A stretch of DNA of 64,000 nucleotides from an uncultured Acidimicrobiia bacterium. GTDB taxonomy: Bacteria > Actinomycetota > Acidimicrobiia > Spongiisociales > UBA5794. A program made the position numbers and the translations under genes. The stretch lies in NCBI GenBank assembly GCA_963792895.1, contig CAWBYA010000006.1:322260-386259 (forward strand), written 5' to 3'. The notes beneath the pieces are model-generated. The model worked only from the letters and a program-made list of their open reading frames with translations. It was not told where the DNA came from and did no database searches. This document shows, in pieces, positions 3,578 to 20,982 of this stretch; the stretch's first letter is position 1, and each line of letters starts with the position of its first letter.

Positions 3578-3677
3578 CGAGTGAGCGTAACGTTGGGCCC
3601 CACGGTGCGAGTGGCAATCGACCATCCCCGCCGCGCCGGGACCGGGCGACCGCTCCTCCGTTCGGCGAGCTGTTGCT

Positions 3678-5348
3678 TCAGCTCGGCGCCCGCACCCAGA
3701 AGCGATACATCGCGGCGAACAGCGCCGGGAATGCCCGCTCAAGCTCGTCCCAGTTGGTGAGGTCGCGCCCCGTCGGCTCGTCGGGGAATGCCTCCAGGTA
3801 GAGCGCACGGATGCGGGGAGACAGCAGTTCGAAGCCGAGGAACGCGAGACCCATGGCGGCGACGGCCCGCTGGATGCGAGGGATGACGAATCGGTCCTCG
3901 TGTGCGGGGAAGAAGAGGTCGCGGCAGCCGCTTCGGGAGAAGAAATCGGGGGTCCCGGCGAGTGAGCGTGCCGGGCTGTTGGACGGAAGGCTGCGAACGA
4001 GGGTGCGCACTGCACGAATACCGTCGAGCGTTGGCTCGAGCGCCCTCTCACTGATGAGCCGGGTGACGGGATCGAGGAGGCTGCGTCCGTACCGGCTGTA
4101 CAGGCCGAGCTTCATGAGTCCACCGGGTCGCGTCAGTGCGCGCAACCGCCGCCAACCCGCTTCGGGGTCGGCCATGTGATGGAGCACCCCGACTGCCTCG
4201 ACAACGTCGAACACGCGGCCGAGGTCTTGGAGCTCCAGAATGTCGGCGTGAGCGAACTCGACGTTGGCGATACCGAGCCGGCGTGCCTGGCGCTCGCCGT
4301 AGGCCAGCGAGGCGAGACTCAGGTCGACCGCCAGCACCCGAGCGCCCTGGTAGCGGGCGGCCGTCAACAACGCATGCCGTCCTGTTCCGCATCCGGCGAT
4401 GAGGATGTCGGGCTCGGCAATGTCGATCGTTGCCGCGAGCTCCGGGTTGCCCAGTGCCGCAGCCACACGCTCGCCGAGCGGGCGGGGGTCCGGATCCGGA
4501 ATGTGCCGCCAGCGCGGGTACGGGCGCTCCTCGTATTGGGCGCGGACAGAGCGCGAGACGCTGTCCGCGATGCTGCCGAGGCGGGGAAGCGAGCGGGCCA
4601 GCATCTGTTCCTCGCCCGGTTCGGCGATGTGGCGTCTCACGACTTCTGCGGTCGACGAGTCCTCCAACTCAGGGGCCGCCGCCAGATGAGCGTGGTCGTC
4701 GCCGAGCGACCGGTACATCGCATAGACCAGAACAGCAAGATGAGGCGGCCTGCCGAGGCTTGCGCCATGAAGACGACCCGCCAGCGCGGCCAGCTGGTCC
4801 GCCTCGCGTCCGCTCTCCTCATATACCCACTCCGTCGTTTGCATCTGAAAGGCGACCGCAGCCAGGAGATTGGGCGAGGGCCACGGAAACGGCGCATTCG
4901 TCGACAGCGCATCGAGCCAGGCTGCCCGGAGGGCCGTGAGCGCCACCTCGACTTCGGCGGACGCATACACGTGGTCGGACAGCAGGCGGATCGAGAGCGG
5001 CTCGTCGAGTCCCCGCGCCAGCGTCACCAGCGACGCAGCAGACGGCGACCCGCGGCCGCCGATCTGGTCGAGCACCTCGGGAGCGGCCGGTAGCGCGGTC
5101 AGGCGGCGCGCAGCGACCCCCACGAGTCGCTGGTGATCGACGCGATCGTCCGCAGCGAGGGCGGCGATGGCACGATCGAGGCGGGCGTCCGCAACAGGGT
5201 CGGACGCCGACACCAGCGCACTGATGAAGCGCTGCCGGGCGCCAGCGTCGTCGGGTTCGGTCAGGTACGCCCGGGCGATATCGGGGAGGGTGCGACGCTG
5301 AGGCGCGTCGCCTGGAGCGACCCGGTCAGCGGCCACGATCGTCGCCAC
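3678..5348 (-). CDS. class I SAM-dependent methyltransferase with a long N-terminal helical (TPR-like?) region
   Basis: SAM-binding motif I DILIAGCGTGRHALLTAARYQGARVLAVDLS and motif-II-like FDVVEAVGVLHHM. The ORF is long and clean with high third-position GC. Confidence 0.8.
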   Translation of the reverse strand: MATIVAADRVAPGDAPQRRTLPDIARAYLTEPDDAGARQRFISALVSASDPVADARLDRAIAALAADDRVDHQRLVGVAARRLTALPAAPEVLDQIGGRGSPSAASLVTLARGLDEPLSIRLLSDHVYASAEVEVALTALRAAWLDALSTNAPFPWPSPNLLAAVAFQMQTTEWVYEESGREADQLAALAGRLHGASLGRPPHLAVLVYAMYRSLGDDHAHLAAAPELEDSSTAEVVRRHIAEPGEEQMLARSLPRLGSIADSVSRSVRAQYEERPYPRWRHIPDPDPRPLGERVAAALGNPELAATIDIAEPDILIAGCGTGRHALLTAARYQGARVLAVDLSLASLAYGERQARRLGIANVEFAHADILELQDLGRVFDVVEAVGVLHHMADPEAGWRRLRALTRPGGLMKLGLYSRYGRSLLDPVTRLISERALEPTLDGIRAVRTLVRSLPSNSPARSLAGTPDFFSRSGCRDLFFPAHEDRFVIPRIQRAVAAMGLAFLGFELLSPRIRALYLEAFPDEPTGRDLTNWDELERAFPALFAAMYRFWVRAPS

Positions 5349-5522
5349 GGACGTTCAGGTGGGGCGAGCGGGCGTTGCGGGCCTCACCACCCAACAGGCG
5401 CGACACGAGCGACAATGTGAGCGAGCCTTTGCCCTGAACCCGTGGTCCTCGTCGACCGACCGGTGTACGTCGTCGTGAGCTCGATCGTGCGGGACCGGGC
5501 GATCCGAGGCCAGCCGTCTGGT

Positions 5523-5711
5523 TCAGCCCAGGATCCGCGCCTTCTGGGCGGCGAATTCCTCGTCGGTGAGGATTCCCTGATCGTGCAACGCCGCCAGTTC
5601 CTTCAGCTTGTCGATCTGATCCATCGTCATCCCACCGGCCGGCGCTGCAGCCTGAGGTGGAGGCGGCGCTTGAGCAGGTGGCGCCTCGGCCGGTGGTTGC
5701 GGCGGTGTCAT
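5523..5711 (-). CDS. SHOCT-domain small protein
   Basis: The C-terminus MTMDQIDKLKELAALHDQGILTDEEFAAQKARILG matches the SHOCT signature. The start is set at the Met preceded by GAGG (MTPPQPPAE…). The upstream part of listed ORF 5523..5807 is Arg-rich. Confidence 0.6.
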   Translation of the reverse strand: MTPPQPPAEAPPAQAPPPPQAAAPAGGMTMDQIDKLKELAALHDQGILTDEEFAAQKARILG

Positions 5712-5839
5712 CGCCGACCTCATGGCGGCTTGCCGCCGGTTCACCCGTCGCGACGTTCGCCGGGATGTTCGTCTCGCCGTCCTTCGTGCTGGACCTCGTG
5801 CGATCATGTGCTTCCTCCTCGTTTCTTGGGTGCCCGGCG

Positions 5840-6577
5840 TCAGCCGACGAGCGCCTCGTCGATCAGCCCCGCCTCCGCCAGCACTCGTGCGCCATCGAGA
5901 GCGCTCGCCGTCGGCACGATGCCGCCATCGACCAGCGCCTGAAGAGCCTCTGCAGCGATCACCGCCCGGACTGCGTTCTCGACGTCGTCGACAACGGCGA
6001 GCGCCTCGATCGACCTGAGCACCGCAGCTCCTTCGACTGCCGCCGCGGCTTCGATGGCCTCCAGCGCCTCAGCCGTGGCAAGCGCCTCGGCGCCGATCAT
6101 GATCAATGCGTCGGGGGAGAGGAACCCCTGGAGCAGTGGCGTGCCGCCGGCAGAGGCCACGGCGTCGCGGAAGCCGGCGGCCCACCGGTGCTCGACGAGC
6201 AAGAGGCCGGCCGCGGTCCCCGGCTCGAGCTCGTCGGCAAGGCCGACGATGTCCTCCTGCGACAGACCGGCTGTGCGGTCGGTGTCCGCTGCGGCGCCCT
6301 CGCTCGAGTCCTCACCCGCCTCCATGTCCAATCCGAGGAGCATGGCCAGCAGCTCGCCTGCGTCGACGATCTCCCCGTCCCCGGCTCCGTCTGCGGTCTC
6401 GTCGTCCAGCTCCAGGACGACGATGTCACCGTTGCGCTCCTTTGCCATGAACAGCACGTCCATCACGCGGATCAATCCACTCGCCTCGAGCCGGTCGAGC
6501 TCGTCGAGAATCTGCCCCCGGAACCTGTCGATCGTGTCGAATCCGTAGGCAACGAACTGGATTGGGCCCATTGACAT
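5840..6577 (-). CDS. hypothetical protein with a conserved N-terminal domain and an Ala/Glu-rich repetitive C-terminal half
   Basis: Third-position GC is about 85%. The N-terminus MSMGPIQFVAYGFDTIDRFRGQILDELDRLEASGLIRVMDVLFMAKERNGDIVVLE follows the same pattern as the N-terminus of the 46588..47082 product. The C-terminus has EALEAIEAAAAVEGAAV…-type repeats. Confidence 0.6.
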   Translation of the reverse strand: MSMGPIQFVAYGFDTIDRFRGQILDELDRLEASGLIRVMDVLFMAKERNGDIVVLELDDETADGAGDGEIVDAGELLAMLLGLDMEAGEDSSEGAAADTDRTAGLSQEDIVGLADELEPGTAAGLLLVEHRWAAGFRDAVASAGGTPLLQGFLSPDALIMIGAEALATAEALEAIEAAAAVEGAAVLRSIEALAVVDDVENAVRAVIAAEALQALVDGGIVPTASALDGARVLAEAGLIDEALVG

Positions 6578-6655
6578 CGTGCGCTCCTCCTGGGGGTCTG
6601 TGCATTCGGCAATCTAACGTCGCTTGTCTCGTTCCGTGGATGACGGCAGATGCGC

Positions 6656-7591
6656 CTACGTCGGCGGCAGAACGCCACCTCCGAACACCGTTGCCCAGTC
6701 GTCTCGCATGCTGACGACGGTCCATCCGAGGCGCGCCGCCGAATCGAGTACTGGTTCCGTAGGGACGAACGTCCCGGCGACTCCCTCGTAGCGGTATTCC
6801 CGGTCCGCGTCGTCATGGTCGATGAGGAGGGCGAGGGTCGGGCCGTCGCCGGTGGAGACGTACTCCAGCATCTCGGCATCGCCGGGCGAGTTACCGGCGG
6901 CGAAGATGGGGCGCCGCCCTATCTGCCGTTGGATGCCCGGCAGCTTGGCCGGGCCCTCGTTGGGGTCGCCGTCGAGCTGAGCCGTCCGGTACAGGCTCAG
7001 CGTCCCATCCGCCCGTCGCACTTCGTAGGTCACTCGTGACCCGATCACCCGTTCGGGCGCGACGCCGTACAGCTGCTCGCTCACGGCACGCACGAAGTCG
7101 GCGCCGCCCGCCGTGCCGATGAAGACGCGGAAGTCCCGCTCGCGTAGCTGTGCGATGAGCTCGAGCATGGGGACGTACACGAGGTCGCCGAACGCCACAC
7201 CGTGCTCCGGATGACGTGCCTCGGCGAAGAAGCGCTCGACGCGAGCGTTGAACTCCTCGGGGGTGATGTCCGCAAAGAGGTCGACGAGGGCCATGGCTAC
7301 TCGCTCGAGCCCAAACTCGCCCATGGCGGCACGGTCGCCGTCGAGCACGGCGCGGTACTCATGACGCTCCGCCAGCTCGGGACGAGCCGCGGCTGCAGAC
7401 CGCAATTCCGCAACGAAGAAATGCACCTGCGGGTAGGTCGGCTTCTCGCACCACAGAGTACCGTCGTTGTCGAAGATGGCGATGCGATCCCGCGGATGTG
7501 CCTGTTCGGCGTTCTTCAGGAAACCGAGTACCGCATCCCGTGCCGTGCCGGGCCGCCAGGACGGGAGCACCCCGTCCTGGCTTACGGCCAC
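6656..7591 (-). CDS. HAD-superfamily hydrolase
   Basis: Motif I IAIFDNDGTLW, and later FIGTAGGADFV / AAGNSPGDAEML-type HAD motifs. It lies 22 bp downstream of the sulfatase gene on the same strand. Confidence 0.85.
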   Translation of the reverse strand: MAVSQDGVLPSWRPGTARDAVLGFLKNAEQAHPRDRIAIFDNDGTLWCEKPTYPQVHFFVAELRSAAAARPELAERHEYRAVLDGDRAAMGEFGLERVAMALVDLFADITPEEFNARVERFFAEARHPEHGVAFGDLVYVPMLELIAQLRERDFRVFIGTAGGADFVRAVSEQLYGVAPERVIGSRVTYEVRRADGTLSLYRTAQLDGDPNEGPAKLPGIQRQIGRRPIFAAGNSPGDAEMLEYVSTGDGPTLALLIDHDDADREYRYEGVAGTFVPTEPVLDSAARLGWTVVSMRDDWATVFGGGVLPPT

Positions 7592-7613
7592 ATCTCTCGT
7601 CCCCTCGGGAATC

Positions 7614-9143
7614 TCACGAGCTGGGAATGCCGGCCTTCAGCTTCTCGAGCATGCTGCTCACCGTGAAGCTGGCGGACTCTTGGCGCGGAGGAAACTCGGC
7701 GAGCGACGCCGCCATCTGCGCCACGAAGGTCTGCGCCGGAATCAGCAAGTAGGCGCGGTCGATGAGCCAGTCGTAGTAGGTGTTCGACGTGATGTCGGCC
7801 CGCTCGAACGGGTCGGTGCGCAGATTGAAGATCTTCGGAACTCGAAGCTCGGTGAAGGGCTCCGCCCACACCCGCAACGTTCCGGGGGCGCGCTGCTCGA
7901 GGAACACGATCTTCCAGTTGTACATACGGAGCGCGGTGAGGTCGCCATCGTCGGAGACGTAGAAGAAGTAGTTCCTGGGGCTCTCGTCGGCCTCTCCCGT
8001 GATGTAGGGCAACTGATTGAAGCCGTCGAGGTGCACCTTGTATGTCGTCCCGTTCAGCTCGTGACCGGCCTTCAACTTGTCGGCGATGTCCGGCTCCCCG
8101 GCGGCAGCGAGCAGCGTCGTAAACCAATCGTTGTGGCTGACGATGCCGTTGAGCACCGTCCCCGGCTCGATGTGCCCCGGCCAGCGGGCCAGGGAAGGCA
8201 CCCGGTACGCGCCCTCCCAGTTGGAGTTCTTCTCGTTCCGAAACGGCGTCATCCCTCCGTCCGGCCAGGTGTTCATGTGCACGCCGTTGTCGGTGCTGTA
8301 GAGCACGATCGTGTCTTCGGCGATCCCGAGCTCGTCGAGCAGGTCGAGCATCTTCCCGATCCGCTTGTCGTGCTCCACCATCCCATCGTGGTACTCGGAC
8401 TGCCAGCGTCCGGCTTGACCTCGAATCTCGTCGGCGATGTGAGTGCGGAAGTGCATTCCCGTGGTGTTGAACCACACGAAGAAGGGGGTTTCACCCTCCA
8501 CCGCGTCCCGGATGAAGCGCTGGGCGGGCTCGATGATCTCGTCGTCGATCGTCTCCATGCGCTTCTTGGTCAGCGGGCCGGTGTCTTCGATCCGCCCGTC
8601 GGCGAAACTGTGGATCACCCCGCGGGGCCCGAACTTCTCGCGGAAGTGGGGGAAGTCCGCCTCGGGGGGATAGTCGGCGTTCTCAGGCTCTTCCTCGGCG
8701 TTCAGGTGATAGAGGTTGCCGAAGAACTCGTCGAAGCCGTGGTTCGTCGGGAGGAACTCATCTCGATCACCGAAGTGGTTCTTGCCGAACTGGCCCGTGG
8801 CGTACCCCTGCGCTTTCAGCGCCGTCGCGATCGTCGGGTCCTCGTCGCGGAGCCCGAGATCGGCGCCGGGCAAGCCAACCTTGGTGAGCCCGGTGCGGTA
8901 CGGGTTCTGCCCGGTGATGAAAGCGGCACGACCGGCCGTGCACGACTGCTCGCCGTAGTAGTCGGTGAACCGAACCCCCTCGGCGGCGATGCGATCGATG
9001 TTGGGCGTCCGATACCCCATCAAGCCGTCGCTGTAGCAACTCAGGTTCGAGATCCCGATGTCGTCTCCCCACAACACCAGGATGTTGGGCTTCCCGTTCG
9101 GCATTAGTGCGGTCGTCTCCCGTCTCGCTGCGAACCGGCGCAA
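7614..9143 (-). CDS. arylsulfatase (type I sulfatase family)
   Basis: Motifs ILVLWGDDIG, sulfatase signature region QSCTAGRAAFITGQNPYRTG, GKNHFG and YSTDNG. The true start may be the internal MPNGKPNIL (about 9104). Confidence 0.9.
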   Translation of the reverse strand: MRRFAARRETTALMPNGKPNILVLWGDDIGISNLSCYSDGLMGYRTPNIDRIAAEGVRFTDYYGEQSCTAGRAAFITGQNPYRTGLTKVGLPGADLGLRDEDPTIATALKAQGYATGQFGKNHFGDRDEFLPTNHGFDEFFGNLYHLNAEEEPENADYPPEADFPHFREKFGPRGVIHSFADGRIEDTGPLTKKRMETIDDEIIEPAQRFIRDAVEGETPFFVWFNTTGMHFRTHIADEIRGQAGRWQSEYHDGMVEHDKRIGKMLDLLDELGIAEDTIVLYSTDNGVHMNTWPDGGMTPFRNEKNSNWEGAYRVPSLARWPGHIEPGTVLNGIVSHNDWFTTLLAAAGEPDIADKLKAGHELNGTTYKVHLDGFNQLPYITGEADESPRNYFFYVSDDGDLTALRMYNWKIVFLEQRAPGTLRVWAEPFTELRVPKIFNLRTDPFERADITSNTYYDWLIDRAYLLIPAQTFVAQMAASLAEFPPRQESASFTVSSMLEKLKAGIPSS

Positions 9144-10128: not shown

Positions 10129-11802
10129 TCACGAAGAGCCATCGGACCGTTGGGCCTCGACCCATGCCGTCGCGTCGGCATAGGCCCGCCGGACCGTGGC
10201 ACCAACGCGCTCGTCGCTCGTATAGACGTTCTCGTCACCAACGACCGCCGTCACCCCGGTCACCCGGAACTGGGCGTTCAGCTGATCGTTGCCGGAGACG
10301 ATCATCAGCTTGCTGCCGCTCGCATGGAGCGAGTCGCCATACCGGACGAGCACTTCCATGAACGTGCTGCCGAGATCCGACCGTCCCCGCAGTCGCAAGA
10401 CCACGACCGAGCCCTTCGACGCCGGCGTGACGGTAGGGAGTTGCCGCTCGAACACCGGAGCGGTTGCGAAGAAGAGGCTGCCGTACGGATTGAGGACGAC
10501 GACGTCGCCCTGGCCGAGCTCCGCAGGCGGGTCTGACTCGACCACGGCGCCATCCTCGCGCACAGAGAGGCGGAGGATGCGGATGTCGTTCGATTGCCGA
10601 ATGACGTACAAGATCACCGAGATTCCGACACCGGCCATCACGGCGTTCTGCAGCGGGATGACCATGGTGAGTAGGAACGTTACGGTCAATACAACCGCCT
10701 GGATCTGGCCTGTCCTCCACACCGAGATGAGGTCGTTCGGCTTCACGGTGCGGTAGCCGATCACCATGAGCAGACCGGCGATGGCCGGCATTGCGATGTA
10801 GCCGACGGCGCCGCCGAGCGCGAGGATCACTACAGCCATGACCGCCCCGGCGATCAGGTTGGCCTGCCGCGACTTGGCCCCGGCAGCCGTCACCAGGGAC
10901 GTGGCCGACATCGAACCCCCTACCGGCATCCCCTGGAAGACGCCGGCGGCGAGATTGGCGGCGCCCTGCCCGACGAAGTCTCGAGAGGCATCCGGGTACT
11001 CGCCATCTGGGTTCACGAAGTTGGCCGAGATGCCTGCGCCCTGGACGAGGCCGACAAAGGCGAGCGCCAACGCAGGAACCACCAGGTCCAACGTGAGACC
11101 GAAGTTGGGGAACACGGCGAGCGGCAGTGATCGGGGCACTTCGGCGGTGTCGCGGAGCTGCGCCACGCCGTCCATGCCAAAGCCGGCGACCATCACCGAG
11201 GTGACAACGATGGCAACCACCATCCCGAGCGGACCGAGGCGGGTCCGCTCGAGCGCAACGATCAGGACGATGGTCGCAAGGCCGACCAGCACCGTTGCCC
11301 AGTGAAGCTGACCGGGGCTGAACAACGTGTCGAGCGCACGGGTCACACGATTCGACCCGCTCGCCGCATAGCCGGTGAAGTTGGAGAACTGGCCGAGCAC
11401 GATGTTGACGCCCACCGCGTTGATGAACCCGACCATCACGGCGTTGGAGACGAAACGCAGGATCGAACCGAGCTTGAGCAGGCCGGCGACCAGCATCACG
11501 ATCCCCGTGAGCACCGACAGTGTGAAGAGGGCGCGAGCCGGATCATCGCCCCGATGGACGAGCCCAACGTCCGCGATCACGATGGCCATCGCCCCTGTCG
11601 CCTGCACGGCCATGAACGCCGAGCTGGTGACCAGCGCACCCGTGAACGTCCCGATCATGTAGGCGTACAGCCCATACAGCGGGTTCACTGCCGCAAGCAG
11701 CCCCCCAGCCAGGCCGTCGGGCACACTCTGCACGCCGAGGACGAGCCCGGCCACCCCGTCTTCTCGCAGGGTCGATCTCTGAATGGGCAGTCGGAGCTTC
11801 AC
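10129..11802 (-). CDS. SulP-family anion transporter with C-terminal STAS domain
   Basis: Multi-TM SulP core (…GLYAYMIGTFTGALV…, …GQGAANLAAGVFQGMPVGGSMSATS…) and a C-terminal STAS-like region (…VVVLRLRGRSDLGSTFMEVL…). Confidence 0.9.
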   Translation of the reverse strand: MKLRLPIQRSTLREDGVAGLVLGVQSVPDGLAGGLLAAVNPLYGLYAYMIGTFTGALVTSSAFMAVQATGAMAIVIADVGLVHRGDDPARALFTLSVLTGIVMLVAGLLKLGSILRFVSNAVMVGFINAVGVNIVLGQFSNFTGYAASGSNRVTRALDTLFSPGQLHWATVLVGLATIVLIVALERTRLGPLGMVVAIVVTSVMVAGFGMDGVAQLRDTAEVPRSLPLAVFPNFGLTLDLVVPALALAFVGLVQGAGISANFVNPDGEYPDASRDFVGQGAANLAAGVFQGMPVGGSMSATSLVTAAGAKSRQANLIAGAVMAVVILALGGAVGYIAMPAIAGLLMVIGYRTVKPNDLISVWRTGQIQAVVLTVTFLLTMVIPLQNAVMAGVGISVILYVIRQSNDIRILRLSVREDGAVVESDPPAELGQGDVVVLNPYGSLFFATAPVFERQLPTVTPASKGSVVVLRLRGRSDLGSTFMEVLVRYGDSLHASGSKLMIVSGNDQLNAQFRVTGVTAVVGDENVYTSDERVGATVRRAYADATAWVEAQRSDGSS

Positions 11803-12195: not shown

Positions 12196-13479
12196 TCACG
12201 TCGCGGCCGACGCTGCCGAGTCCTCGTCGCCGGATGTGCGTCGTTTCCTCGAATGCCGGCGGGCGGCCGTCGGCGCCGGCTGCTCGGAGTGGTAGACGAC
12301 ATCGTGGCTGGCAACGTAGTTGGAGATGAACGACGAGATGAGGGCCGCAATGGGCAGCGCCGTGAACGCCCCCATCGGACCGGCGATGGCCCCGCCCGCC
12401 AGTGCAGCGCCAAAGGCAACCCCGCCATTCAGCGTCATGGTCTGAGCGCTGATCTTCGGGCTCAGGTAGTAGTTCTCGACCTGCTGGTACACCAGCACGT
12501 AGCCCAGCACGATCAGGGCAGCCGTCAGCCCCTGGATCGCAAGCGTCAAGAGCACGGGGATCGCACCGCCGATGTAGGTGCCGATCGCCGGGATGAACAC
12601 GGACACGAACGATCCGAACAGCGCCAGCGAGATGGCGGCGGCAACCGGGATCCCCACGAGCACCATCGTGAAGAAGAACCCGAGACCGTTGATGAGCATC
12701 AGGATCAATCTCGAGTAGAAGTAGCCGCCGGTCTGGATGATGGCCTGATCCCACGTCCAGCCAATGCGCTGCTGGGCTCGCGGGCTGAAGAGGCGCAGCA
12801 CCGCGTTCTGCACGTCGGGCGCATCCGCAGTCAAGTAGAACGTGAACATCGCAATCGTGGCGAGATTGAAGATCAGCCCGATGCCGGCCGTCGCGATGTC
12901 GACCGCCGTGCCAAAGGCTCCCGAAGCAAAGCCGGTGATCGCCGAGTCGGTGTTCTGGGCGAGATCGTTGGCCGTCGCCGGGTTGGCGACCTCGAAGCCG
13001 AGGTTGCTGGACGTCCAGTCGTTCACCGTGTTGATCCACTCGGCGCCTCGATCGCCGATCACCCGGGCGAGGTCGGCGATGGCGGGGATGAGGATGACCA
13101 CCATGAAGGTGACGAAGAGGGCGCCGGCCACGTAGATCACACCGGTCGCAGAGCCCCGCCGCCAGCCATAGCGACCGGTGAGCCATCGTACGGCGGGCTC
13201 CAGCGCAAGGCTGAAGAAGAACGAGATCAGCACCATCGAGACGAGCCCGCGTGCTTGGGACACCGCCCATATCAACACGATGGTGGTGAGCACGACGCCA
13301 ACGACCTGCCAGATCGATTTCGACGAGATCTCGATACGCTGCACGGTCACGGGCGGCGCAGAGCCCTCGGTCCCTGCGGGCGACCCGCCGGTCTCCATTC
13401 CGTCACTCTCGATCGGCACCTCGGCCACCTCCCGCGTCGACGGCAATCTAGACGCACGAGCCGGCGGCCGCGCCTGCAC
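12196..13479 (-). CDS. AI-2E (PerM/YhhT) family transporter
   Basis: Full-length eight-TM architecture with the family motifs …FFFSLALEPAVRWL… and …IPAIGTYIGGAIPVLLTL…YVLVYQQVENYYLSPKI. The N-terminal 60 aa may be over-extended. Confidence 0.85.
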   Translation of the reverse strand: MQARPPARASRLPSTREVAEVPIESDGMETGGSPAGTEGSAPPVTVQRIEISSKSIWQVVGVVLTTIVLIWAVSQARGLVSMVLISFFFSLALEPAVRWLTGRYGWRRGSATGVIYVAGALFVTFMVVILIPAIADLARVIGDRGAEWINTVNDWTSSNLGFEVANPATANDLAQNTDSAITGFASGAFGTAVDIATAGIGLIFNLATIAMFTFYLTADAPDVQNAVLRLFSPRAQQRIGWTWDQAIIQTGGYFYSRLILMLINGLGFFFTMVLVGIPVAAAISLALFGSFVSVFIPAIGTYIGGAIPVLLTLAIQGLTAALIVLGYVLVYQQVENYYLSPKISAQTMTLNGGVAFGAALAGGAIAGPMGAFTALPIAALISSFISNYVASHDVVYHSEQPAPTAARRHSRKRRTSGDEDSAASAAT

Positions 13480-13668: not shown

Positions 13669-14043
13669 TCAGGCGAGAAGCTTGGCCTTCTGCGCCTGGA
13701 ACTCCTGGTCGCTGATCACGCCGGAGCTCTTGAGACTCGCCAGCTTCTCCAACTCGTCGGCGGTCGACGCACCTGCCGCCTGCTGGATGTACGTACGCGT
13801 TGCCTGCTCGTTCTCCTGCGCGACCGCGACGCTGCGGGCCGCCATGCCATCGCCTCTGGCAATGAGGTAGGCCAGCACTCCGAGCCACGGGATGATCATC
13901 ACGGCCAGCACCCAAATCGCCTTCGCAAACCCGCCCATGTCGCGGCTACGGAAGATGTCGGTGATCACCGAGATCAGCACCCAAATCCACGCGAGGAAGA
14001 TGAAGAACCACAACATGGACCAGAACAGATCGAACAACGGCAT
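13669..14043 (-). CDS. PLDc_N (cardiolipin-synthase N-terminal-like) + SHOCT small membrane protein
   Basis: Start at MPLFDLFW, preceded by AGGAGG. PLDc_N signature FWSMLWFFIFLAWIWVLISVITDIFRSRDMGGFAKAIWVLAVMIIPWLGVLAYLIARG; C-terminal SHOCT ELEKLASLKSSGVISDQEFQAQKAKLLA. Confidence 0.75.
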   Translation of the reverse strand: MPLFDLFWSMLWFFIFLAWIWVLISVITDIFRSRDMGGFAKAIWVLAVMIIPWLGVLAYLIARGDGMAARSVAVAQENEQATRTYIQQAAGASTADELEKLASLKSSGVISDQEFQAQKAKLLA

Positions 14044-14166: not shown

Positions 14167-16323
14167 CTATGGCGCGCTTCCGTCGCTTCCCTCTCCGCGG
14201 GCAGCCGTCCGCTCAGAGGAGATCGTGACCGTCGCGCGGACGGCGTACGCAGCGACATCGTCGGCCAAACCAGGCAGCTCGACGTTGGGACCGATGTCCC
14301 AGTCGGGACCGAGCTCGTCAACGACATTGTCGTCGACCAGCACCTGTCCAGGTTGCGCAAGCGAGTCGAGCGTCGATGCGATGCCGGGCGCATCGCCCCA
14401 CACGCCGAAGGCGACCTGATTGGAGCCGAGCACGCCGGTAGCGACTTCGCCGGCGGCGAGCCCTGCGCGGGCCGTCAGCGCCTGCCCGAACTCCCGTCCG
14501 ATCTGGGCCACTCCACCGACCACGGCAAGTGCGAACCGCACAGCCCCTGCCGCATTTGCGTCGTCTTGGTCGAGCCCCGCCACGAAGAGCTCGCTTCCAG
14601 GCGACCGGCGAAGGCGCTCGACGTTGTGGCGGGCCGCCAGCTCGTCCACTTCCTCGTTGATCCGTTCAGTGAGCTCGAGAACGACGTCCTGGTCGGGACC
14701 GGTTGCTTCCGGCATCGCATCGAGAGTGACCGAGATGACGGTCGCGTTGTCCAGCATGTCGTCGATCGCGACCTCCCCCATTCGGACGCGGTCGACGAGC
14801 CGGTCGGGTAACACCGCAGCGAGCATGTCGCTGATCTTCCGCTCTTCGTCGACGATCCCTTGTTCTCGCTCCTCGAGCCGGCGAGCCACACCATCGAGCT
14901 GACGCGCCAGATCTCCCAGCTCATTACGCCCTAGCTCGGGGATATCGGTGGCGAGATCACCCCTGGCCAGGCCATCGGCCGCCTGGACGAGCGAGTCCAC
15001 TGGCCGCGAGATCGTCCGAGCAAGGAACGCTCCGAGCGCGGCGACCGTCGGCACCAGCAACCCGAGGACCAGCAGGATTCGGCGCACGTACGAGTCGAGC
15101 GCCGAGCTCGATTCGCTCTTCGCCTGCTCGGCGATCACGACCCAATCCAGATCACCAGCCGCGGCGGGTCCGGCGGCGGTGAGCGTCTTCGTGCCGAGGT
15201 AGCTGGTGACCGTTCCGATGAACTCGTCCCCATCGAGCCCGGCCACCACGGCTTCGTCGTCGACCCGCTGCAGGAGAACGGGCGATCCGACCATCTGCAT
15301 CAAATCCGCGGTCCTCTGGTCGTCGTAGCGCGCCACATACCTCTGGAGATACGCGTCGGGGTCCTCCAGCCAGAGCCGAGAATTGGATCGCAAGGTCTGG
15401 TCGGAACCAACGATGTAGATCTCACCCGTATCCCCCAACCCGAGTTGTCGCCAGTCCTGCCCGGCGCTGATGATGTCGGTCAGTACCCCAACGGGTATCT
15501 CGGTGACGACCGCGCCGATCACCTCTGAACCCGAGCGGACCGCCGCGGCCAGGAAGAAGACCGGCTCACCGCGAGTCGGGATGTAGAACCAGCTGTCGGA
15601 CACAACGGTGTCGCCGACAGCGACCCCGGTCAGACCATCGAGCGCTTCCCCGAGTCCGGTGTCGCCATACGGTCCTTCGATCGCATCGGTACCGAAATCG
15701 ATGTGCTTCTTGGTCGAGTAGACGACGTCCCCGTTCTCCAGGTCGACCAGCAACAGGTCCGACATGCCGGCGTTCCGCATCAGATCACGCAGCACGGGAT
15801 GGAAGTCGGCGTGAACGCGGCTATACCCTGATCCGTCGCCGGCGTCATCGAGATCGTCACGCTCGTCGAAGCCGGCAGGATTCTCGGCGATGTACTTCAG
15901 TTGGAGGTATCGGCCGGCGGGCGAACCGGGCACGAATTCTCGTACCGGAGGCAGGTCGACGCCTGCTTCTATGAACGGGGGCAGAACCTCGGCCTCGTAG
16001 AGCGTCTCGAGCTCTCCGATCTGCTCCGATGCGATGTCCTGGTCGAGCCGGGCGTACTCTGCCGTCAGCCCGATCAGCGCGGCGACGACGGTGGGGCTGG
16101 TGGCCATTGTCGATACCGCCGACTTCGCCCGTGCGACCCCACGTTCGATGGCTTCGATGCGGGAGTCGCGAAGCCCTATGAGTTGCGACTCGACACTCTC
16201 GTTGATCAGGACTCGAGCAAACACGTAATTCACGCCGGAGAGGAGGAGCACCGAGACCAGTGCAACACCAACGAGATTGCGCGTCAGGCGACCACGGAGA
16301 CGCGGTGCTCGCAGCCGGTTCAT
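14167..16323 (-). CDS. membrane sensor adenylate/guanylate cyclase (TM - large extracytoplasmic sensor domain - TM - HAMP - class III cyclase domain)
   Basis: N-terminal TM, extracytoplasmic domain of about 380 aa, a second TM (ILLVLGLLVPTVAALGAFLA) and a HAMP-like segment. The class III cyclase homology domain includes the …GEVATGVLGSNQVAFGVWGD… motif. Its start ATG overlaps the stop of the upstream channel gene (ATGA). Confidence 0.85.
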   Translation of the reverse strand: MNRLRAPRLRGRLTRNLVGVALVSVLLLSGVNYVFARVLINESVESQLIGLRDSRIEAIERGVARAKSAVSTMATSPTVVAALIGLTAEYARLDQDIASEQIGELETLYEAEVLPPFIEAGVDLPPVREFVPGSPAGRYLQLKYIAENPAGFDERDDLDDAGDGSGYSRVHADFHPVLRDLMRNAGMSDLLLVDLENGDVVYSTKKHIDFGTDAIEGPYGDTGLGEALDGLTGVAVGDTVVSDSWFYIPTRGEPVFFLAAAVRSGSEVIGAVVTEIPVGVLTDIISAGQDWRQLGLGDTGEIYIVGSDQTLRSNSRLWLEDPDAYLQRYVARYDDQRTADLMQMVGSPVLLQRVDDEAVVAGLDGDEFIGTVTSYLGTKTLTAAGPAAAGDLDWVVIAEQAKSESSSALDSYVRRILLVLGLLVPTVAALGAFLARTISRPVDSLVQAADGLARGDLATDIPELGRNELGDLARQLDGVARRLEEREQGIVDEERKISDMLAAVLPDRLVDRVRMGEVAIDDMLDNATVISVTLDAMPEATGPDQDVVLELTERINEEVDELAARHNVERLRRSPGSELFVAGLDQDDANAAGAVRFALAVVGGVAQIGREFGQALTARAGLAAGEVATGVLGSNQVAFGVWGDAPGIASTLDSLAQPGQVLVDDNVVDELGPDWDIGPNVELPGLADDVAAYAVRATVTISSERTAARGEGSDGSAP

Positions 16324-17861
16324 GACGCCTCCTCCACGCCTCGGTCGCGGGCCGAGTCGATGCCCGGGTGGGTAGGTTCGGTGCCGGTGTCGCGTGCCGT
16401 GCTACGGGCGGCGCGACGCACCACGCGATCGATGCGGCGGCGCCGGGCGAGCGCGAGCTGCTCGATTGCCGCGCCCAGGCCGGCGGCCGCGGCGATCGCC
16501 CGACCCGCAACCTCGGAAGGGATCGTGACGACGTCGCAGTCCGTCACGGCGGTGACAGCCGCAGTCCGGTCACCATGGAGCGGCTCGTCGATGACCCCGA
16601 GGAGCTCACCGGCCTCGAAGGCGAGAACGTCGAAATCCTCAGTGTCGGGTTGACGGAGCACCAGCCGTGCTCGACCACGATGCAACAGCATGAGATCTTG
16701 CTGGGCGCCCTCGGTGACGATGGTCTCGCCTTTCTGGTAGGCGCCCAGCACGGCGCCGTTCGCCAGGCGGTCGAGAACGTCGTCGTCGAGCTGCTGCAGC
16801 AACGGGGAGTCGAGGAGCCGTCGGCGAAGCTCTGACGGAGTCGTCTCGCTTTCGATTGCCGTCTTTGCGCCGTCGAAGAGATAGAGGTCCTGGGCGGGAT
16901 TGGGAAGCGGCACTCCATGGCGGTACGAGAGGTACCAGACGAGCGCGCTGAAGTCTGCCTTGGCGCGCGGTGTGATCGTGTAGTCGTCCACCCACATGTA
17001 GGTCAGGTAGTCGACGACGGGGTCGGCGATCTGGGTGATCACGACGAAGGGCGGCGGGTCCTCGAGCACCCCGGGGGTCGAGCGGGCTGCGTCGAGCAAC
17101 ATCTCCTTGGCCGCCGTGGGTGGGGCCGAACGTTCGATCTGTACGGGCACCGCAACTCGGTGGAGACGACTCGGTTGGTCGTAGTTGGTGATCGTGGCGT
17201 TGGCGAGCTGCCCGTTGGGGATCACGACGAGGTCGCCGTTGCGGTCCTGGATGCGGGTGCTCCGCCAGTTGACGTCCAGCACTCGCCCTTCGACGTCTTC
17301 GGCCTCGATCCAGTCGCCCGGCCCGAACGGTTGGTCGGCGAGCAGCGTGAAGCCGGACGCAATACCGCTCAGCGTGGGCTGGAGCGCAAACGAGATGACC
17401 AGCGACGTCACGCCGAGCGCGGTGAGCGCCGAAGAGACGTCGACGCCCCAGATGCCGGCGATGAGGAACCATCCGGTGCCGATGAAGATGAGGAGCCGAG
17501 GCATGGCAAGTAGGAGGCGAGGCACCTGCCGACGCCCGCTGCGGCGAGACCGGTCTATGAGGCCGGCGACCGCGACACGCAACGCCGACAGCGCAACCGC
17601 CGCTCCGGCAAGCACGACCGCGCTCGACAGCAGCCGAACGAATGGGTTGGTTCGTTCGACATCGAACAGCGCCCGGCTGAGCACCCAGAGTGTGAACACC
17701 GGGACGATCCAGACCCGAATGATCGAAATCGACGCCTGGAACGGAGAGTCGCGCTGTCGCAGGCGCTCCTCGAGCTCGCCCGCCCCGATGATCAACAGTG
17801 GCAACAGGACGATCACGAGCGCTGCCCACGCGTTGCTGGAGTCTGCGAACAGGTTGCTCAT
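16320..17861 (-). CDS. MscS-family mechanosensitive channel fused to a C-terminal cyclic-nucleotide-binding domain (bCNG-type)
   Basis: MscS core …ALQPTLSGIASGFTLLADQPFGPGDWIEAEDVEGRVLDVNWRSTRIQDRNGDLVVIPNGQ…. The C-terminal cNMP-binding domain carries the phosphate-binding cassette FEAGELLGVIDEPLHGDRTAAVTAVTDCDV. Start chosen at MSNLFADSS, so it overlaps the stop of the upstream cyclase gene. Confidence 0.85.
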   Translation of the reverse strand: MSNLFADSSNAWAALVIVLLPLLIIGAGELEERLRQRDSPFQASISIIRVWIVPVFTLWVLSRALFDVERTNPFVRLLSSAVVLAGAAVALSALRVAVAGLIDRSRRSGRRQVPRLLLAMPRLLIFIGTGWFLIAGIWGVDVSSALTALGVTSLVISFALQPTLSGIASGFTLLADQPFGPGDWIEAEDVEGRVLDVNWRSTRIQDRNGDLVVIPNGQLANATITNYDQPSRLHRVAVPVQIERSAPPTAAKEMLLDAARSTPGVLEDPPPFVVITQIADPVVDYLTYMWVDDYTITPRAKADFSALVWYLSYRHGVPLPNPAQDLYLFDGAKTAIESETTPSELRRRLLDSPLLQQLDDDVLDRLANGAVLGAYQKGETIVTEGAQQDLMLLHRGRARLVLRQPDTEDFDVLAFEAGELLGVIDEPLHGDRTAAVTAVTDCDVVTIPSEVAGRAIAAAAGLGAAIEQLALARRRRIDRVVRRAARSTARDTGTEPTHPGIDSARDRGVEEAS

Positions 17862-20026
17862 CGGACGGGCTCCCCTTCGCTCACCCGTCCCGACACGATG
17901 GTCACGCCGGGAGCGTCTGCCGGCCCGGCCAGGTTCTCGGTCCTGAAGGTGGATGGCAGTTGAGACTGTGTCGCTTCGGAGGCGAGCACTTGGTATGCCC
18001 CGGCGCGACGGGCGAGGTCCGCCGCAGTCTGCACGGTCTCGCCCCACGAGTCGTACACGAATCGCGAGCCGCCCGTCAGTCCGACGGTGACCGGTCCGGA
18101 GTCGAGGCCGGCGCTCATCGTGACGGCTTCATGGTGGTCCGCTGCGAAATCGCGGATCAACTCTCGGACGTCGAGCACGAATGATGCCGCTCGCTGGGCA
18201 TGATCGAGATACGGACGGAGGGTGCCGCATGCGGCGTAGTACGCGTCACCGGTGAGCCGGAACCGATCGACGCCGCGCTGCGCCGCCAAACGGTCCGTCT
18301 CCTCGATGAACTGGTCGATCAACGTGCGGGCATCGCCTGCCGAACCCCGACGCATCAGTGCGCCGATTCCGTGGATCACGACAACGGCGATCGTTGCGTT
18401 CGCCACCTGATCCAACACATCTTGCTCGCCGGCCTCAGCCCGGCCGACAACCAGAGGCGGGAGAAGCCTCCGCAGGAGCGCGCGCCGCTCCGAAGCCCGT
18501 TCCGCCGCATCGGCGTTGCGCTCGGAGAGCGTTGCCAGCATCGTTTCGATGTCGGTGGCAAGCCCGGCGAACTCCTCTGGACAATTGGCGGGCAGAGCGA
18601 TCGAGCTCGAGGCGAGGTCGGAGTCGCCGCTCGCCCGAACGGCCCGCAGCCGGTTCGAGATGGTGCGCAGTGGCTCGAGCAGACGGTTCGACCAACCCAC
18701 GGCGATGAAGGTGATCGCAACGATGAACAGCGCAATCGCGATCAGCAGTCTGCGAACGAAATCCTGGGTCGGCAGACCGAGCTCCTCACGGTCCACCGCG
18801 GCGAACACCGCCCAATCCAGTCCATCGATGCCCAGCGCCCGGTACGCCGACAGAACCTCGGTTCCCAGATAGCTCGTTGTCGCCACGAGTCCGGGCTCGC
18901 TCGTGAGCGCAGCCTCGACTTCGTCGCCATTGACGGGTTGGATGAGCGTGGTGGTCCCGAGCAGCTCCATCAACCTTATCTCGTTTGCGCCGGCGGTCCC
19001 CGCTGCACTGACCGCCTCCAAGTATTCGTCAGGATCCTCGATGAACCCCCGGGCGTCGGATCGCATCCGATCGTCGCCGGCGACGAGGTACGTCTCTCCG
19101 GACGCACCGACGTTCTGCCACGATCCATCGTTCGTTGTGATCGACGAGAGTCGGGAGGCTTCGATGCGAAGTGCGACATATCCCACCAGGGTTCCGTCGT
19201 CGATCACCGGGCTGGCAACGAAGGCGCTCGGCTGGTCGCCTGCCGGCGCGTACTGGGTGAAGTCGGCGACGATCGAGATCCCGGGTTCGGATTGCCGGGG
19301 GAACGAACCGATCAGTGCGGCGAGCGCGCTGCCACTCTGCGGACCGCTCAGCAGGCTCGTCGCGAAGTCGATGTCCTTCGAGGTCGAGTACACGATGGTG
19401 TTGTTCTCGGGCTCGATCAGATACAGATCGTCGACCCCGTTCCGGATCACGAACTCGTCGAATGACTCGCTGAGAGCGCGATGCACGTCCGACCACCGAC
19501 TGCCGTCACCGGCGTCGACGACAATGGCTCCGTCGTCGCCGTGCGCCGGAACGACGTAGTTCGCCTGCAGGTAGATCGCCGCAGGGTTCTCGGGTACGAG
19601 GGTCGCGGCGCTCACCGGGCGGTCGCGCACCTCAGCCAACTGCGGAGCAACGACGTCGAGGTAGTAGTCACCGACCGCCGACCGGTCGGCGGGTGAGGGG
19701 GTTTCGGACTCCAGTTCCCGGTAGGCCGAGGCATATTCTCGGACGGCGTCGGCCGTGCTCGGGCTGATCGCCTGGCTGATCGCTCCCCGCCGTAGGCTCT
19801 CGACGTAGCGCTCGACCTGGTCGGCCTGGGATGCCGCAAGGGCGCTCAGGCGATCGCGCACCACCTGCTCGGCCACTTCGCTGCCCCGCTGCAACCCGAC
19901 GACCGATGCGATGACGAGGGAGGCGAGCGCAACGACAACGAAGACGAGCGAGAGCCGAGTCGCAGCAGAAGTGTCCCTTCCGATCCGGCGTGGCAATGTC
20001 GTGAGTCTCGAGAAGCGTGGGCGCAC
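17858..20026 (-). CDS. second membrane sensor adenylate/guanylate cyclase (TM - extracytoplasmic domain - TM - HAMP - cyclase domain)
   Basis: Same architecture as 14167..16323. HAMP-like LEPLRTISNRLRAVRASGD…, then a cyclase-homology region (…RFRLTGDAYYAACG…, …VGLTGGSRFVYDSWGETVQTAADLARRAG…). Confidence 0.85.
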   Translation of the reverse strand: MRPRFSRLTTLPRRIGRDTSAATRLSLVFVVVALASLVIASVVGLQRGSEVAEQVVRDRLSALAASQADQVERYVESLRRGAISQAISPSTADAVREYASAYRELESETPSPADRSAVGDYYLDVVAPQLAEVRDRPVSAATLVPENPAAIYLQANYVVPAHGDDGAIVVDAGDGSRWSDVHRALSESFDEFVIRNGVDDLYLIEPENNTIVYSTSKDIDFATSLLSGPQSGSALAALIGSFPRQSEPGISIVADFTQYAPAGDQPSAFVASPVIDDGTLVGYVALRIEASRLSSITTNDGSWQNVGASGETYLVAGDDRMRSDARGFIEDPDEYLEAVSAAGTAGANEIRLMELLGTTTLIQPVNGDEVEAALTSEPGLVATTSYLGTEVLSAYRALGIDGLDWAVFAAVDREELGLPTQDFVRRLLIAIALFIVAITFIAVGWSNRLLEPLRTISNRLRAVRASGDSDLASSSIALPANCPEEFAGLATDIETMLATLSERNADAAERASERRALLRRLLPPLVVGRAEAGEQDVLDQVANATIAVVVIHGIGALMRRGSAGDARTLIDQFIEETDRLAAQRGVDRFRLTGDAYYAACGTLRPYLDHAQRAASFVLDVRELIRDFAADHHEAVTMSAGLDSGPVTVGLTGGSRFVYDSWGETVQTAADLARRAGAYQVLASEATQSQLPSTFRTENLAGPADAPGVTIVSGRVSEGEPVR

Positions 20027-20106: not shown

Positions 20107-20982
20107 CTAACGCACCGCCGCAACAGGCACCAGGAATGCTCGATAGCCGTAGAGCCCGAATGCGGCCGCCGTCAGCACGTGCCACGCGGCGTGCCCCTGG
20201 AGCGCGCTCGCCGGATCGCACAAGGGACCACCGGTTCGGCCGAGCAGATTGACAAGGCCGCCGGCGAGGAGCAGCACCATGACCGCTGCCAACCACGACA
20301 CGAGTTGGGATGAGATTCGTTCGCGGCGACCGGCCCGATACAGGTAGGTCTCCAGCCCGAGGGCGGCGAGACCCACGACTGCGCTCAGCGCGATCCCCAC
20401 GTTCGGTGACACCGCCATGGCCACGCCGATCAGGGCCGTGATGCCGGCGAAGAGCCCCATGACAAAGCCTTCACTCCAGCCCTGCATCGTTCCGACGGCG
20501 CGAGCTGCGATCAGGGCGAAGACCGATGCAATCGTGAGGTCGTGAACGAGGCGAGCCCCGGGGGGCATAGGACCGTGAAAGAGAATGCTCCCCACCCCGA
20601 CACCGGCGAGAGCGATGCCGAACGCCACCTGTGTCATCGTCTCATGGCCGCGCCGCCGAAGGGCCGAGACAACGATCCACGCGCCGAACACCATGTAGGC
20701 GCCGCTCGAGAGCGTGTTCACCGGCTGGGCGAGCCATCCTTCACCGATCGCCTCACAATCCGATGCGCCGATCTGGCCGGCACGCGCGACAGTGAAGGAG
20801 TCCAGAGCCACCACCGCATTGTGGCATGTGCCGGCTGGGTCACCGGACTCGAGACGCCCGCCGAAATCCTGGACCCACGATGGGCCTCCGACCGACCCGA
20901 CGATGTCGAGAGCGAGCCAGGGACGCAACCGCCGCGGAGCCGGGACCATGCCCGCCGGCTGCCTCCTCACCTCTGGGGGCAT
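20107..20982 (-). CDS. ceramidase-family (alkaline ceramidase / YwaF-like) integral membrane protein
   Basis: CEAIGEGWLAQPVNTLSSGAYMVFG matches the C-E…EP-x-NT-x-SN motif of the ceramidase family. Several TM helices follow, and the conserved His pair is in LQGHAAWHVL. Confidence 0.55.
   Translation of the reverse strand: MPPEVRRQPAGMVPAPRRLRPWLALDIVGSVGGPSWVQDFGGRLESGDPAGTCHNAVVALDSFTVARAGQIGASDCEAIGEGWLAQPVNTLSSGAYMVFGAWIVVSALRRRGHETMTQVAFGIALAGVGVGSILFHGPMPPGARLVHDLTIASVFALIAARAVGTMQGWSEGFVMGLFAGITALIGVAMAVSPNVGIALSAVVGLAALGLETYLYRAGRRERISSQLVSWLAAVMVLLLAGGLVNLLGRTGGPLCDPASALQGHAAWHVLTAAAFGLYGYRAFLVPVAAVR

Follow-up and report, generated by a model that had tools for sequence, protein, structure and literature searches.

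Two predicted pseudo-cyclase receptors flank an MscS-like channel in a conserved three-gene unit of Acidimicrobiia

Introduction

When two genes for cyclase-like membrane receptors flank a gene for a channel with a nucleotide-binding fold, and overlap with it on both sides, is it a cyclic nucleotide monophosphate (cNMP) that passes between their products? The question is raised by a 64,000-nucleotide stretch of DNA from an uncultured Acidimicrobiia bacterium (contig CAWBYA010000006.1, positions 322,260 to 386,259; the window from here on), which has a G+C content of 65-69% and holds three co-directional open reading frames (ORFs) at positions 14167-20026 of its minus strand. In the order in which they are read, these encode Cyc1, an upstream receptor with a cyclase-homology domain (CHD) (17858..20026, 722 amino acids (aa), GTG start); an MscS-like channel that carries at its C terminus a cyclic-nucleotide-binding (CNB) fold (16320..17861, 513 aa when read from the ATG at 17861); and Cyc3, a downstream receptor that also carries a CHD (14167..16323, 718 aa). 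The genes were assigned from their ORFs, translations and Pfam matches, with AlphaFold2 (AF2) models and Foldseek for the channel and the consistent position of orthologues on either side of it for the two receptors; all of the features described below lie on the minus strand unless a related locus is named.

A sequence-only reading of the window described three genes joined by two ATGA overlaps, which the ORFs and the sequence itself confirm. At 17858..17861, the start codon of the channel gene overlaps the stop codon of Cyc1, and at 16320..16323, the start codon of Cyc3 overlaps the stop codon of the channel gene, each junction having a purine-rich, Shine-Dalgarno-like run a few bases 5′ of it, within the preceding gene. 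The same reading took the unit for a circuit in which two extracytoplasmic signals feed cNMP synthesis and the cNMP in turn gates the channel. We found no support for this circuit, as both CHDs are without a competent catalytic set in the window and in about 60 relatives of each. Judged by their residues, they appear to be pseudo-enzymes that have kept the fold of a class III cyclase and lost its active site, and this seems to be a trait of the whole clade rather than an accident of one genome.

Receptors with a cyclase fold

Both flanking proteins belong to the CHD family (PF00211) in sequence and fold. The Guanylate_cyc model of Pfam matches Cyc1 with E 1.9e-22 and Cyc3 with E 4.1e-13, and the CHD of Cyc1, which is confidently modelled, reaches target-normalised TM scores of 0.85-0.89 against cyclase catalytic domains in Foldseek. 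Cyc1 and Cyc3 are collinear paralogues that share 28% identity over 678 aa (E 3e-60, HAMP region included), so that the earlier description of two paralogous yet clearly different sensor receptors holds. It had also given each of them a transmembrane (TM) helix on either side of an extracytoplasmic domain of about 380 aa, and here hydropathy agrees, with two TM helices per receptor and about 380 residues between them, as does the AF2 model of Cyc1 (mean pLDDT 83.9, with means of 10-residue blocks mostly above 90 in the extracytoplasmic part).

In Cyc1, TM1 (aa 27-45; 19892..19948) has a Kyte-Doolittle peak of 2.91 and lies within a long helix of the model. It is followed by an extracytoplasmic double-Cache (dCache) sensor domain (aa 46-426; 18749..19891), by TM2 (aa 427-445; 18692..18748; hydropathy peak 2.79), by a divergent HAMP-like linker (aa 446-505; 18512..18691), and by a pre-cyclase helix, matching the segment LLANMLPASIAERL of the Rv1625c-type cyclase Cya, together with the CHD (aa 512-697; 17936..18493), both of which were placed by phmmer alignment to Cya and by Foldseek. 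Cyc3 repeats this plan, with TM1 at aa 17-35, a dCache-type sensor at aa 38-415 (15079..16212) and TM2 at aa 416-434, as judged from hydropathy, a weak dCache_1 match and collinearity with the Cyc1 domain. Its HAMP domain (aa 433-485; 14869..15027) is a Pfam assignment (PF00672), and its pre-cyclase helix and CHD (aa 496-674; 14302..14838) come from the phmmer alignment to Cya.

The dCache_1 model matches both window proteins below threshold; it is found in 9/18 Cyc1-type and 9/16 Cyc3-type relatives (best E 1.3e-13), and we assign both sensors to this class, whose double PAS-like (Cache) fold is framed by a pair of TM helices. Inspection by eye revealed no recognisable amino-acid-binding motif in the dCache domains. 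As for HAMP, which had been claimed for both receptors, the claim is secure for Cyc3 (47.9 bits against a cut-off of 25, E 1.7e-12) and stands only in part for Cyc1, which has no Pfam HAMP match at E<=0.1, although the corresponding region aligns with the HAMP domain of Cyc3; AF2 confidence is low at about residues 470-535 of Cyc1. Among the relatives, HAMP was found in 15/16 Cyc3-type and 6/18 Cyc1-type proteins. According to Pfam, the receptors carry no output domain other than the CHD, in the window or in relatives.

Loss of the class III active site

In class III cyclases, which are dimers, the active sites lie at the interface, with one chain giving two Asp residues and the other giving Lys, Asp, Asn and Arg. 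In Rv1625c, the roles are divided among Asp256 and Asp300 (metal), Lys296 and Asp365 (substrate), and Asn372 and Arg376 (transition state) (PMC4174876). We read these six positions from phmmer alignments to the Rv1625c-type Cya, the best solved relative of both CHDs, and obtained V550, R590, D594, D659, Q666 and D670 for Cyc1, in which two of the six are canonical, and T533, R572, G576, G640, G647 and T651 for Cyc3, in which none is. Neither protein has the metal pair, for which Cyc1 presents Val and Asp and Cyc3 presents Thr and Gly. The substrate pair, expected to be Lys/Asp for ATP or Glu/Cys for GTP, is Arg/Asp in Cyc1 and Arg/Gly in Cyc3, which means that it is partly retained in Cyc1 only and that the sole near-match of Cyc3 to the six positions is a conservative Lys-to-Arg replacement. 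The transition-state pair is likewise absent, being replaced by Gln/Asp and Gly/Thr, respectively. Alternative registers for Cyc3 that might restore a metal Asp were sought by hand, and both the phmmer register and a gapless right-anchored one give Thr or Ser at the position of Asp256 and Gly or Ser at that of Asp300.

The same losses run through the relatives, each of which was aligned directly to Cya (64 Cyc1-type and 57 Cyc3-type proteins). Asp256 is present in 0/64 Cyc1-type and 2/57 Cyc3-type proteins, Asn372 in 0/64 and 1/57, and Arg376 in 4/64 and 0/57; both metal Asp residues occur together in 0/64 and 1/57, and Asn together with Arg in none of either type (0/64 and 0/57). Asp300 and Asp365 behave differently in the two families, with 59/64 and 63/64 Cyc1-type proteins retaining them, compared with 16/57 and 3/57 Cyc3-type proteins. 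Position 296 is K in 29, R in 26 and Q in 9 of the Cyc1-type relatives and is never Lys in Cyc3-type proteins. An independent mapping based on tblastn agrees with these residue counts.

Point mutants of Rv1625c that affect the two kinds of half-site reportedly complement each other, and two defective chains could in principle rescue one another in the same way. In the loci examined, however, neither paralogue provides both Asp residues and neither provides Asn plus Arg, which are the complementary half-sites of C1/C2-type cyclases. Because no pairing joins both Asp residues with the Lys/Asp/Asn/Arg set, no complete active site can be assembled in a homodimer or in a Cyc1/Cyc3 heterodimer. The receptors are members of the CHD superfamily, but by sequence they qualify neither as working class III cyclases nor as a heterodimeric cyclase with complementary half-sites.

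Loss of the catalytic residues has not led to decay. Mean identity to the window proteins is 0.50 for the Cyc1 CHD and 0.44 for the Cyc3 CHD, compared with 0.44 and 0.49 for the respective sensor domains and 0.18-0.21 for the C-terminal tails, and the pre-cyclase helix ahead of each CHD is also conserved. With CHDs about as conserved as sensors and far more so than tails, the cyclase-like domains remain under constraint.

The channel and its nucleotide pocket

The channel combines the two parts that define the bacterial cyclic-nucleotide-gated MscS-like (bCNG) channels, an MscS pore helix with its beta domain and, at the C terminus, a cyclic-nucleotide-binding fold. Pfam finds MS_channel_2nd (PF00924; 73.6 bits against a cut-off of 20.2, E 1.4e-20), MS_channel_3rd (PF21082) and cNMP_binding (PF00027; 32.6 bits against a cut-off of 27.5), and Foldseek ranks MscS, YnaI and MscK highest. 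Domain searches therefore bear out the assignments of the sequence-only reading to the family level, with Guanylate_cyc in both flanking genes and MS_channel and cNMP_binding in the channel. The AF2 model (mean pLDDT 83.1) shows five N-terminal helices (residues 9-36, 42-66, 73-108, 115-137 and 142-175), then beta and alpha-beta domains of the MscS kind and a CNB beta-roll modelled with confidence. The membrane region, which includes the pore helix, and the MscS beta domain occupy aa 1-300 (16962..17861), and the CNB-fold domain occupies aa 346-470 (16452..16826) on the evidence of Pfam, the AF2 beta-roll and phmmer matches to the CNB domains of SthK, CRP/FNR and PKG. Among the candidates scored, 682 homologues match the channel at E<=1e-10, and nothing else in the locus is as well conserved as its core (aa 111-300), with 0.70 identity to the window protein.

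The phosphate-binding cassette (aa 418-437; 16551..16610) had been described as intact, with the motif GELLGV...RTAAVTA, but this description was mis-registered. The stretch GELLGV aligns with G[DE]xFGE in SthK (FFGE...PRTATV) and in relatives with a canonical cassette, and because of this correspondence the cassette Glu is Val423 in the window protein, while Arg432-Thr433-Ala434 is indeed present. The cassette thus reads Gly-Val...Arg-Thr-Ala in place of the canonical Gly-Glu...Arg-Ser/Thr-Ala, and DSSP assigns no helix to residues 416-432 of the model. The Glu is found in 0/74 relatives and an R[STA]A-like triad in 11/74, with Arg at the cassette Arg position in about half of them. In a working CNB domain, the phosphate-binding cassette is normally the best-conserved part; here it is the least conserved stretch of the domain (0.33 versus 0.43). 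The gating of the channel by cNMP, as earlier envisaged, is therefore unsupported. Our claim is limited to the clade, in whose channels cNMP binding does not appear to be a conserved property, and we do not deny that the window protein itself may bind a cyclic nucleotide.

Conservation of the triplet

The strict association of the three genes is a further line of evidence. A genome scan gave 80 species-level loci, mostly from metagenome-assembled genomes (MAGs) of Acidimicrobiia/Ilumatobacteraceae, with some labelled Nitriliruptorales, Thermoleophilia or "Actinomycetes", and with channel identity down to 43%. Sixty-two of the loci extend far enough on either side to be informative; in all 62 the order is Cyc1-type, channel, Cyc3-type, and the upstream CHD gene best matches Cyc1 and the downstream one Cyc3. 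The cyclase-channel-cyclase arrangement is thus conserved in relatives, as the sequence-only reading would have it, while the outer flanking genes differ between loci. The 4-bp overlap is kept between Cyc1 and the channel in 57/65 loci and between the channel and Cyc3 in 38/60, counts that rest on heuristic start calls.

Several individual loci deserve mention. An apparent channel-Cyc3 fusion of 1218 aa (L023, 7001-10657) was set aside as a frameshift artefact within the CNB region of the assembly, and several other loci of the same MFD MAG series show split tblastn matches, consistent with frameshift errors. Some individual MAGs hold two separate triplet loci (L006/L007, L039/L062 and L061/L082), suggesting that, like chemoreceptor genes, the module is duplicated and diversifies as a whole. 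One locus labelled Kiloniellales (Alphaproteobacteria; L074) has a triplet typical of those of Actinomycetota, which may be due to mis-binning of the MAG or to lateral transfer. We also compared Kimura distance matrices for each domain across 44 loci, using partial correlation to control for the channel core, but this co-evolution test did not discriminate, as the inter-protein values (0.22-0.62) overlap the intra-protein ones (0.21-0.51), and it is not used as evidence here.

Graded erosion in the wider family

The wider MscS-CNB family shows how far the window lies from canonical chemistry. Representative clusters at 50% identity that match the channel at E<=1e-30 number 635, and the best-scoring ones cover nearly the whole query. 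In 134 full-length representatives, including the window protein, the cassette has both Glu and RxA in 33, Glu without RxA in 62 and neither in 35; the window channel is one of only four with RxA alone. As a contrast, a metagenome scan seeded on the FGE motif yielded 38 MscS-CNB loci, 36 of them with a canonical cassette. Among those canonical-cassette loci, 20 include 1 kb or more of sequence upstream, and in L117 alone is the upstream neighbour a cyclase gene, an intact one: in L117 (3680-7311), a class III cyclase with D, K, D, T, N and R at the six positions lies directly upstream of an MscS-CNB channel with the canonical FGE...R-K-A-T. This is the arrangement that the sequence-only reading envisaged, in a different lineage. 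Two further loci of the same scan have intact cyclase genes farther downstream.

In the channel relatives closest to the window clade, a receptor CHD gene always lies directly upstream. They comprise a second triplet with lower G+C (L164), receptor-channel pairs (L166, L168 and L169), a pair followed by an overlapping SBP_bac_3 gene (L167) and a pair with a 4-bp overlap (L085). The first metal position is S, S, R or H in these pairs and R in L164, while in L085 the region is beyond the contig end. These six loci alone would suggest that the first metal Asp is missing from every CHD encoded next to such a channel, but the homologues of the L166 receptor (2825-4993) refute this. Of the candidates scored, 506 are homologues at E<=1e-20, and many of those with names are cyanobacterial; in 120 of the homologues (P0282-P0401) Asp256 is kept in 83 and the commonest set of residues is D-K-D-D-N-A (46/120), which is why we regard the erosion as graded and not universal. 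Only 4/120 are fully canonical. The Arg376 position among these 120 is Ala in 69 and Arg in 14.

A named example is found in Cyanobium sp. (L170, 4001-8702), where a dCache-HAMP-cyclase gene and an MscS-CNB gene share 4 bp and a gene of the Metallophos phosphoesterase family comes next. Its cyclase is without Asn372 plus Arg376 and its channel reads FGE...PSTVT, with no Arg; the three genes could form a complete module for making, sensing and degrading cNMP. A pair formed by a receptor cyclase and an MscS-CNB channel is thus widespread, with graded loss of canonical chemistry, and the window stands at the far end of this range with a second receptor added.

Some of these outgroup loci also carry genes for solute-binding proteins. 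In L167, an SBP_bac_3 gene (5518-6705) occupies the slot after the channel that Cyc3 would fill, with a 4-bp overlap; in L164, an OpuAC/Peripla_BP_6 gene (6617-9043) follows the triplet; and the 950-aa protein P0220 is an MscS-CNB protein fused to SBP_bac_1. Such associations hint at a small extracellular solute as the input.

Surroundings of the unit

In the window, an 80-bp gap separates Cyc1 from an upstream gene for a ceramidase-family membrane protein (20107-20982), and 123 bp separate Cyc3 from a gene for a small PLDc_N/SHOCT-type membrane protein (13669..14043), which has an AGGAGG site upstream and a homologue in L002 and L003 annotated as PLDc_N+SHOCT. Homologues of the latter gene adjoin the triplet in 17 related loci, lying divergently upstream of Cyc1 in L002, L003, L016-L018, L021 and L022 and downstream of Cyc3 in L056, L057, L059, L060, L064, L066, L081 and L083, and it may be an accessory component of the unit. 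Farther on are genes for an AI-2E family transporter (12196-13479) and a SulP/STAS sulfate permease (10129-11802). The ceramidase, AI-2E and SulP/STAS neighbours are not kept beside the triplet in the two related loci inspected in detail, and scans of 13.4-21.2 kb returned neither an Rfam family nor any consensus promoter or terminator around the unit.

A contact-based model and its alternatives

We propose that the unit is a hard-wired sensor-channel in which dCache-HAMP pseudo-cyclase receptors, probably as a heterodimer, control the MscS-like channel by touching it directly rather than by way of a second messenger. This is the reading that we favour, and we would put its chances of being right at about half. 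It builds on the gene structure, the domain identities, the lost catalytic and cassette residues, the constraint on the CHDs and the conserved triplet, from which we infer the heterodimer, the physical contact with the channel, the direction of control and the ligand. Translational coupling would allow the three proteins to be made together and in fixed proportion. Cyc1 and Cyc3 would then pair, most likely as a heterodimer, which is probable because they always occur together and because Cyc3 is the more degenerate of the two, as is seen in C1/C2 or in the alpha/beta subunits of soluble guanylyl cyclase (sGC). An extracellular solute would bind the dCache domains, and the signal would travel through HAMP and the pre-cyclase helix to alter the conformation of the CHD dimer. 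The channel, presumably heptameric, would read this change directly, most plausibly through its vestigial CNB domain, and would be biased towards opening or closing, with a flux of ions or solutes as the output. The most specific form of the proposal, a cNMP module without a messenger in which the pseudo-cyclase heterodimer docks on the vestigial CNB domains and gates the channel directly upon the arrival of an extracellular solute, is more tentative, and we consider it possible but would sooner bet against it.

Several observations weigh against this proposal. The contact between CHD and channel and the Cyc1/Cyc3 heterodimer are themselves predictions made from sequence. The near-invariant Asp300 and Asp365 of Cyc1-type proteins, together with the basic residue that most of them have at position 296, suggest a retained pocket for a purine or nucleotide rather than a purely structural role. 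The window channel has kept Arg432-Thr-Ala, and Epac proteins bind cAMP without the cassette Glu. Some of the cyanobacterial two-gene versions, in which five of the six residues are kept, may be active, the ancestor was likely messenger-based, and residual chemistry in the window proteins is conceivable. As a general point, pseudo-enzymes sometimes use relocated catalytic residues (PMC10211241).

One rival is the active circuit, in which Cyc1, Cyc3 or both are working cyclases and the cNMP that they make gates the channel by way of its CNB domain. The CHD and CNB domains are both present and significant, the genes are translationally coupled, the window channel retains Arg-Thr-Ala, and L117 demonstrates that a circuit of this kind, with an intact cyclase and a canonical-cassette channel, exists in nature. 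We nevertheless consider it improbable for the window. Neither protein has the first metal Asp, which nearly all of their relatives also lack, Asn372 occurs in just one of the relatives, no complementary heterodimer site is possible, and the cassette has no Glu in any of the 74 relatives and is the least conserved part of its domain; a cyclase working with the first metal Asp, Asn and Arg all missing would be unprecedented. A somewhat stronger competitor, which we still regard as unlikely, holds that the channel answers a cNMP or another small ligand made elsewhere, with Cyc1 and Cyc3 acting as modulators, for instance as ATP-sensing or scaffolding pseudo-cyclases. The retained Arg432-Thr-Ala, the Arg found at that position in about half of the relatives, the conservation in Cyc1 of Asp300, Asp365 and a basic residue at 296, which form the adenine-side half of the pocket, and a solved CHD-like protein described as ATP-binding (6yii) are all compatible with it. 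However, no other CHD or CNB gene lies within the 64-kb window, the cassette varies among close relatives, which argues against a conserved cNMP site, and it offers no reason for tying two receptors to the channel through gene overlaps.

It may also be asked whether the three proteins work together at all. MscS-family channels act alone in E. coli, and conservation in the locus is highest in the mechanosensitive core, as would be expected if the channel were an ordinary osmotic safety valve that is merely co-regulated with receptors signalling to some other partner. The invariant gene order and conserved overlaps, kept while neighbouring genes turn over, speak against such a separation, as do the pairing of the same channel family with a receptor CHD gene in distant phyla and the absence of any other output domain in the receptors, and we rate its chances as poor, about as low as those of the active circuit. 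Finally, the loss of all or most catalytic residues could be taken as a sign that the cyclase-like genes are decaying remnants without function. We find this very hard to credit, given full-length ORFs of about 700 aa in some 60 species and CHDs conserved to the level of the sensors and far above the tails. Within the contact-based model, the residues kept by Cyc1 would leave room for a non-catalytic nucleotide-binding role, for which 6yii may serve as a precedent.

Relation to known systems

By architecture, the channel belongs to the bCNG family, its cassette being atypical. Like bCNG channels, it has membrane and beta domains of the MscS type and, after these, a CNB-fold domain at the C terminus, but it differs from them in that its cassette is without Glu and poorly conserved and in that its gene is flanked by two receptor CHD genes. 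A 2026 review, which cites Caldwell et al. (2010) and Malcolm et al. (2012) on bCNG channels, states that there is no structure and that their physiological role and the part of cyclic nucleotides in their gating are unknown (PMC13591265).

The closest counterparts of the unit are two-gene modules such as that of Cyanobium (L170), in which a dCache-HAMP-cyclase receptor gene also lies upstream of the channel gene with a 4-bp overlap. In contrast to the window, they have a single receptor gene, their third slot is empty or filled by another gene (SBP_bac_3 in L167, Metallophos in L170), and they are much less eroded than Cyc1 (two of six) or Cyc3 (none of six). Another member may exist in Mycobacterium tuberculosis, where Rv2434c is presumably an MscS plus cNMP-binding protein. 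It is described in the literature as a membrane protein linked to cAMP signalling, and Rv2435c has been reported to carry a dCache domain (PMC4822843). Rv2435c/Rv2434c is probably a module of the two-gene type.

Mammalian membrane adenylyl cyclases, with their C1 and C2 domains, and sGC, with its alpha and beta subunits, resemble Cyc1 and Cyc3 in having two diverged paralogous CHDs that are always co-expressed, and the solved C1, C2 and sGC domains are structural neighbours of the window CHDs. The difference is that complementary degeneracy leaves one working site in those systems, as is well established, whereas neither Cyc1 nor Cyc3 contributes both Asp residues or the Asn-Arg pair. Degenerate GGDEF/EAL proteins offer an analogy only: they have lost catalysis and are kept as interaction or receptor modules in contact-based c-di-GMP signalling, but they belong to a different fold family with a different messenger and have no homology with the window CHDs. 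The protein in 6yii, a class III adenylyl cyclase-like ATP-binding protein of Pseudomonas aeruginosa, comes from a soluble transcription-regulator context and has no membrane receptor or channel partner.

The sequence-only reading considered the operon to be a system not previously described, and this can be kept in part. In the literature searched, the fixed three-gene form with two receptors appears to be undescribed, as do the clade-wide degeneration of both CHDs and the parallel erosion of the cassette in the channel. The overlapping two-gene form is widespread, and the receptor-channel gene pair itself is not new, being common in Cyanobacteria.

Implications

The two-gene relatives bear source names such as "class 3 adenylate cyclase" and "adenylate/guanylate cyclase domain-containing protein", and inferring cAMP or cGMP production from cyclase names in the window clade is probably wrong. 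A clade that has lost its cyclase chemistry, eroded its nucleotide pocket and kept a strict partnership would offer a clean test of the CNB domain as a protein-docking module, and the probable counterpart in M. tuberculosis could be re-examined in light of the pseudo-cyclase reading.

The loci can be arranged in a series, from L117, with an intact cyclase and a canonical cassette, through modules of the Cyanobium type, with five of the six residues and an Arg-less cassette, to the window, with two and none of the six and a Glu-less cassette. This series may be an example of a pathway with a diffusible messenger collapsing into a contact-based complex, comparable to what is seen in degenerate GGDEF/EAL proteins. 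If the direct docking of the receptors on the channel holds true, the unit would be a natural end-point of the graded erosion seen in cyanobacterial and other two-gene relatives, and the bacteria that carry it would have a "mechanosensitive" channel that is gated by a ligand and whose receptor is a subunit of its own.

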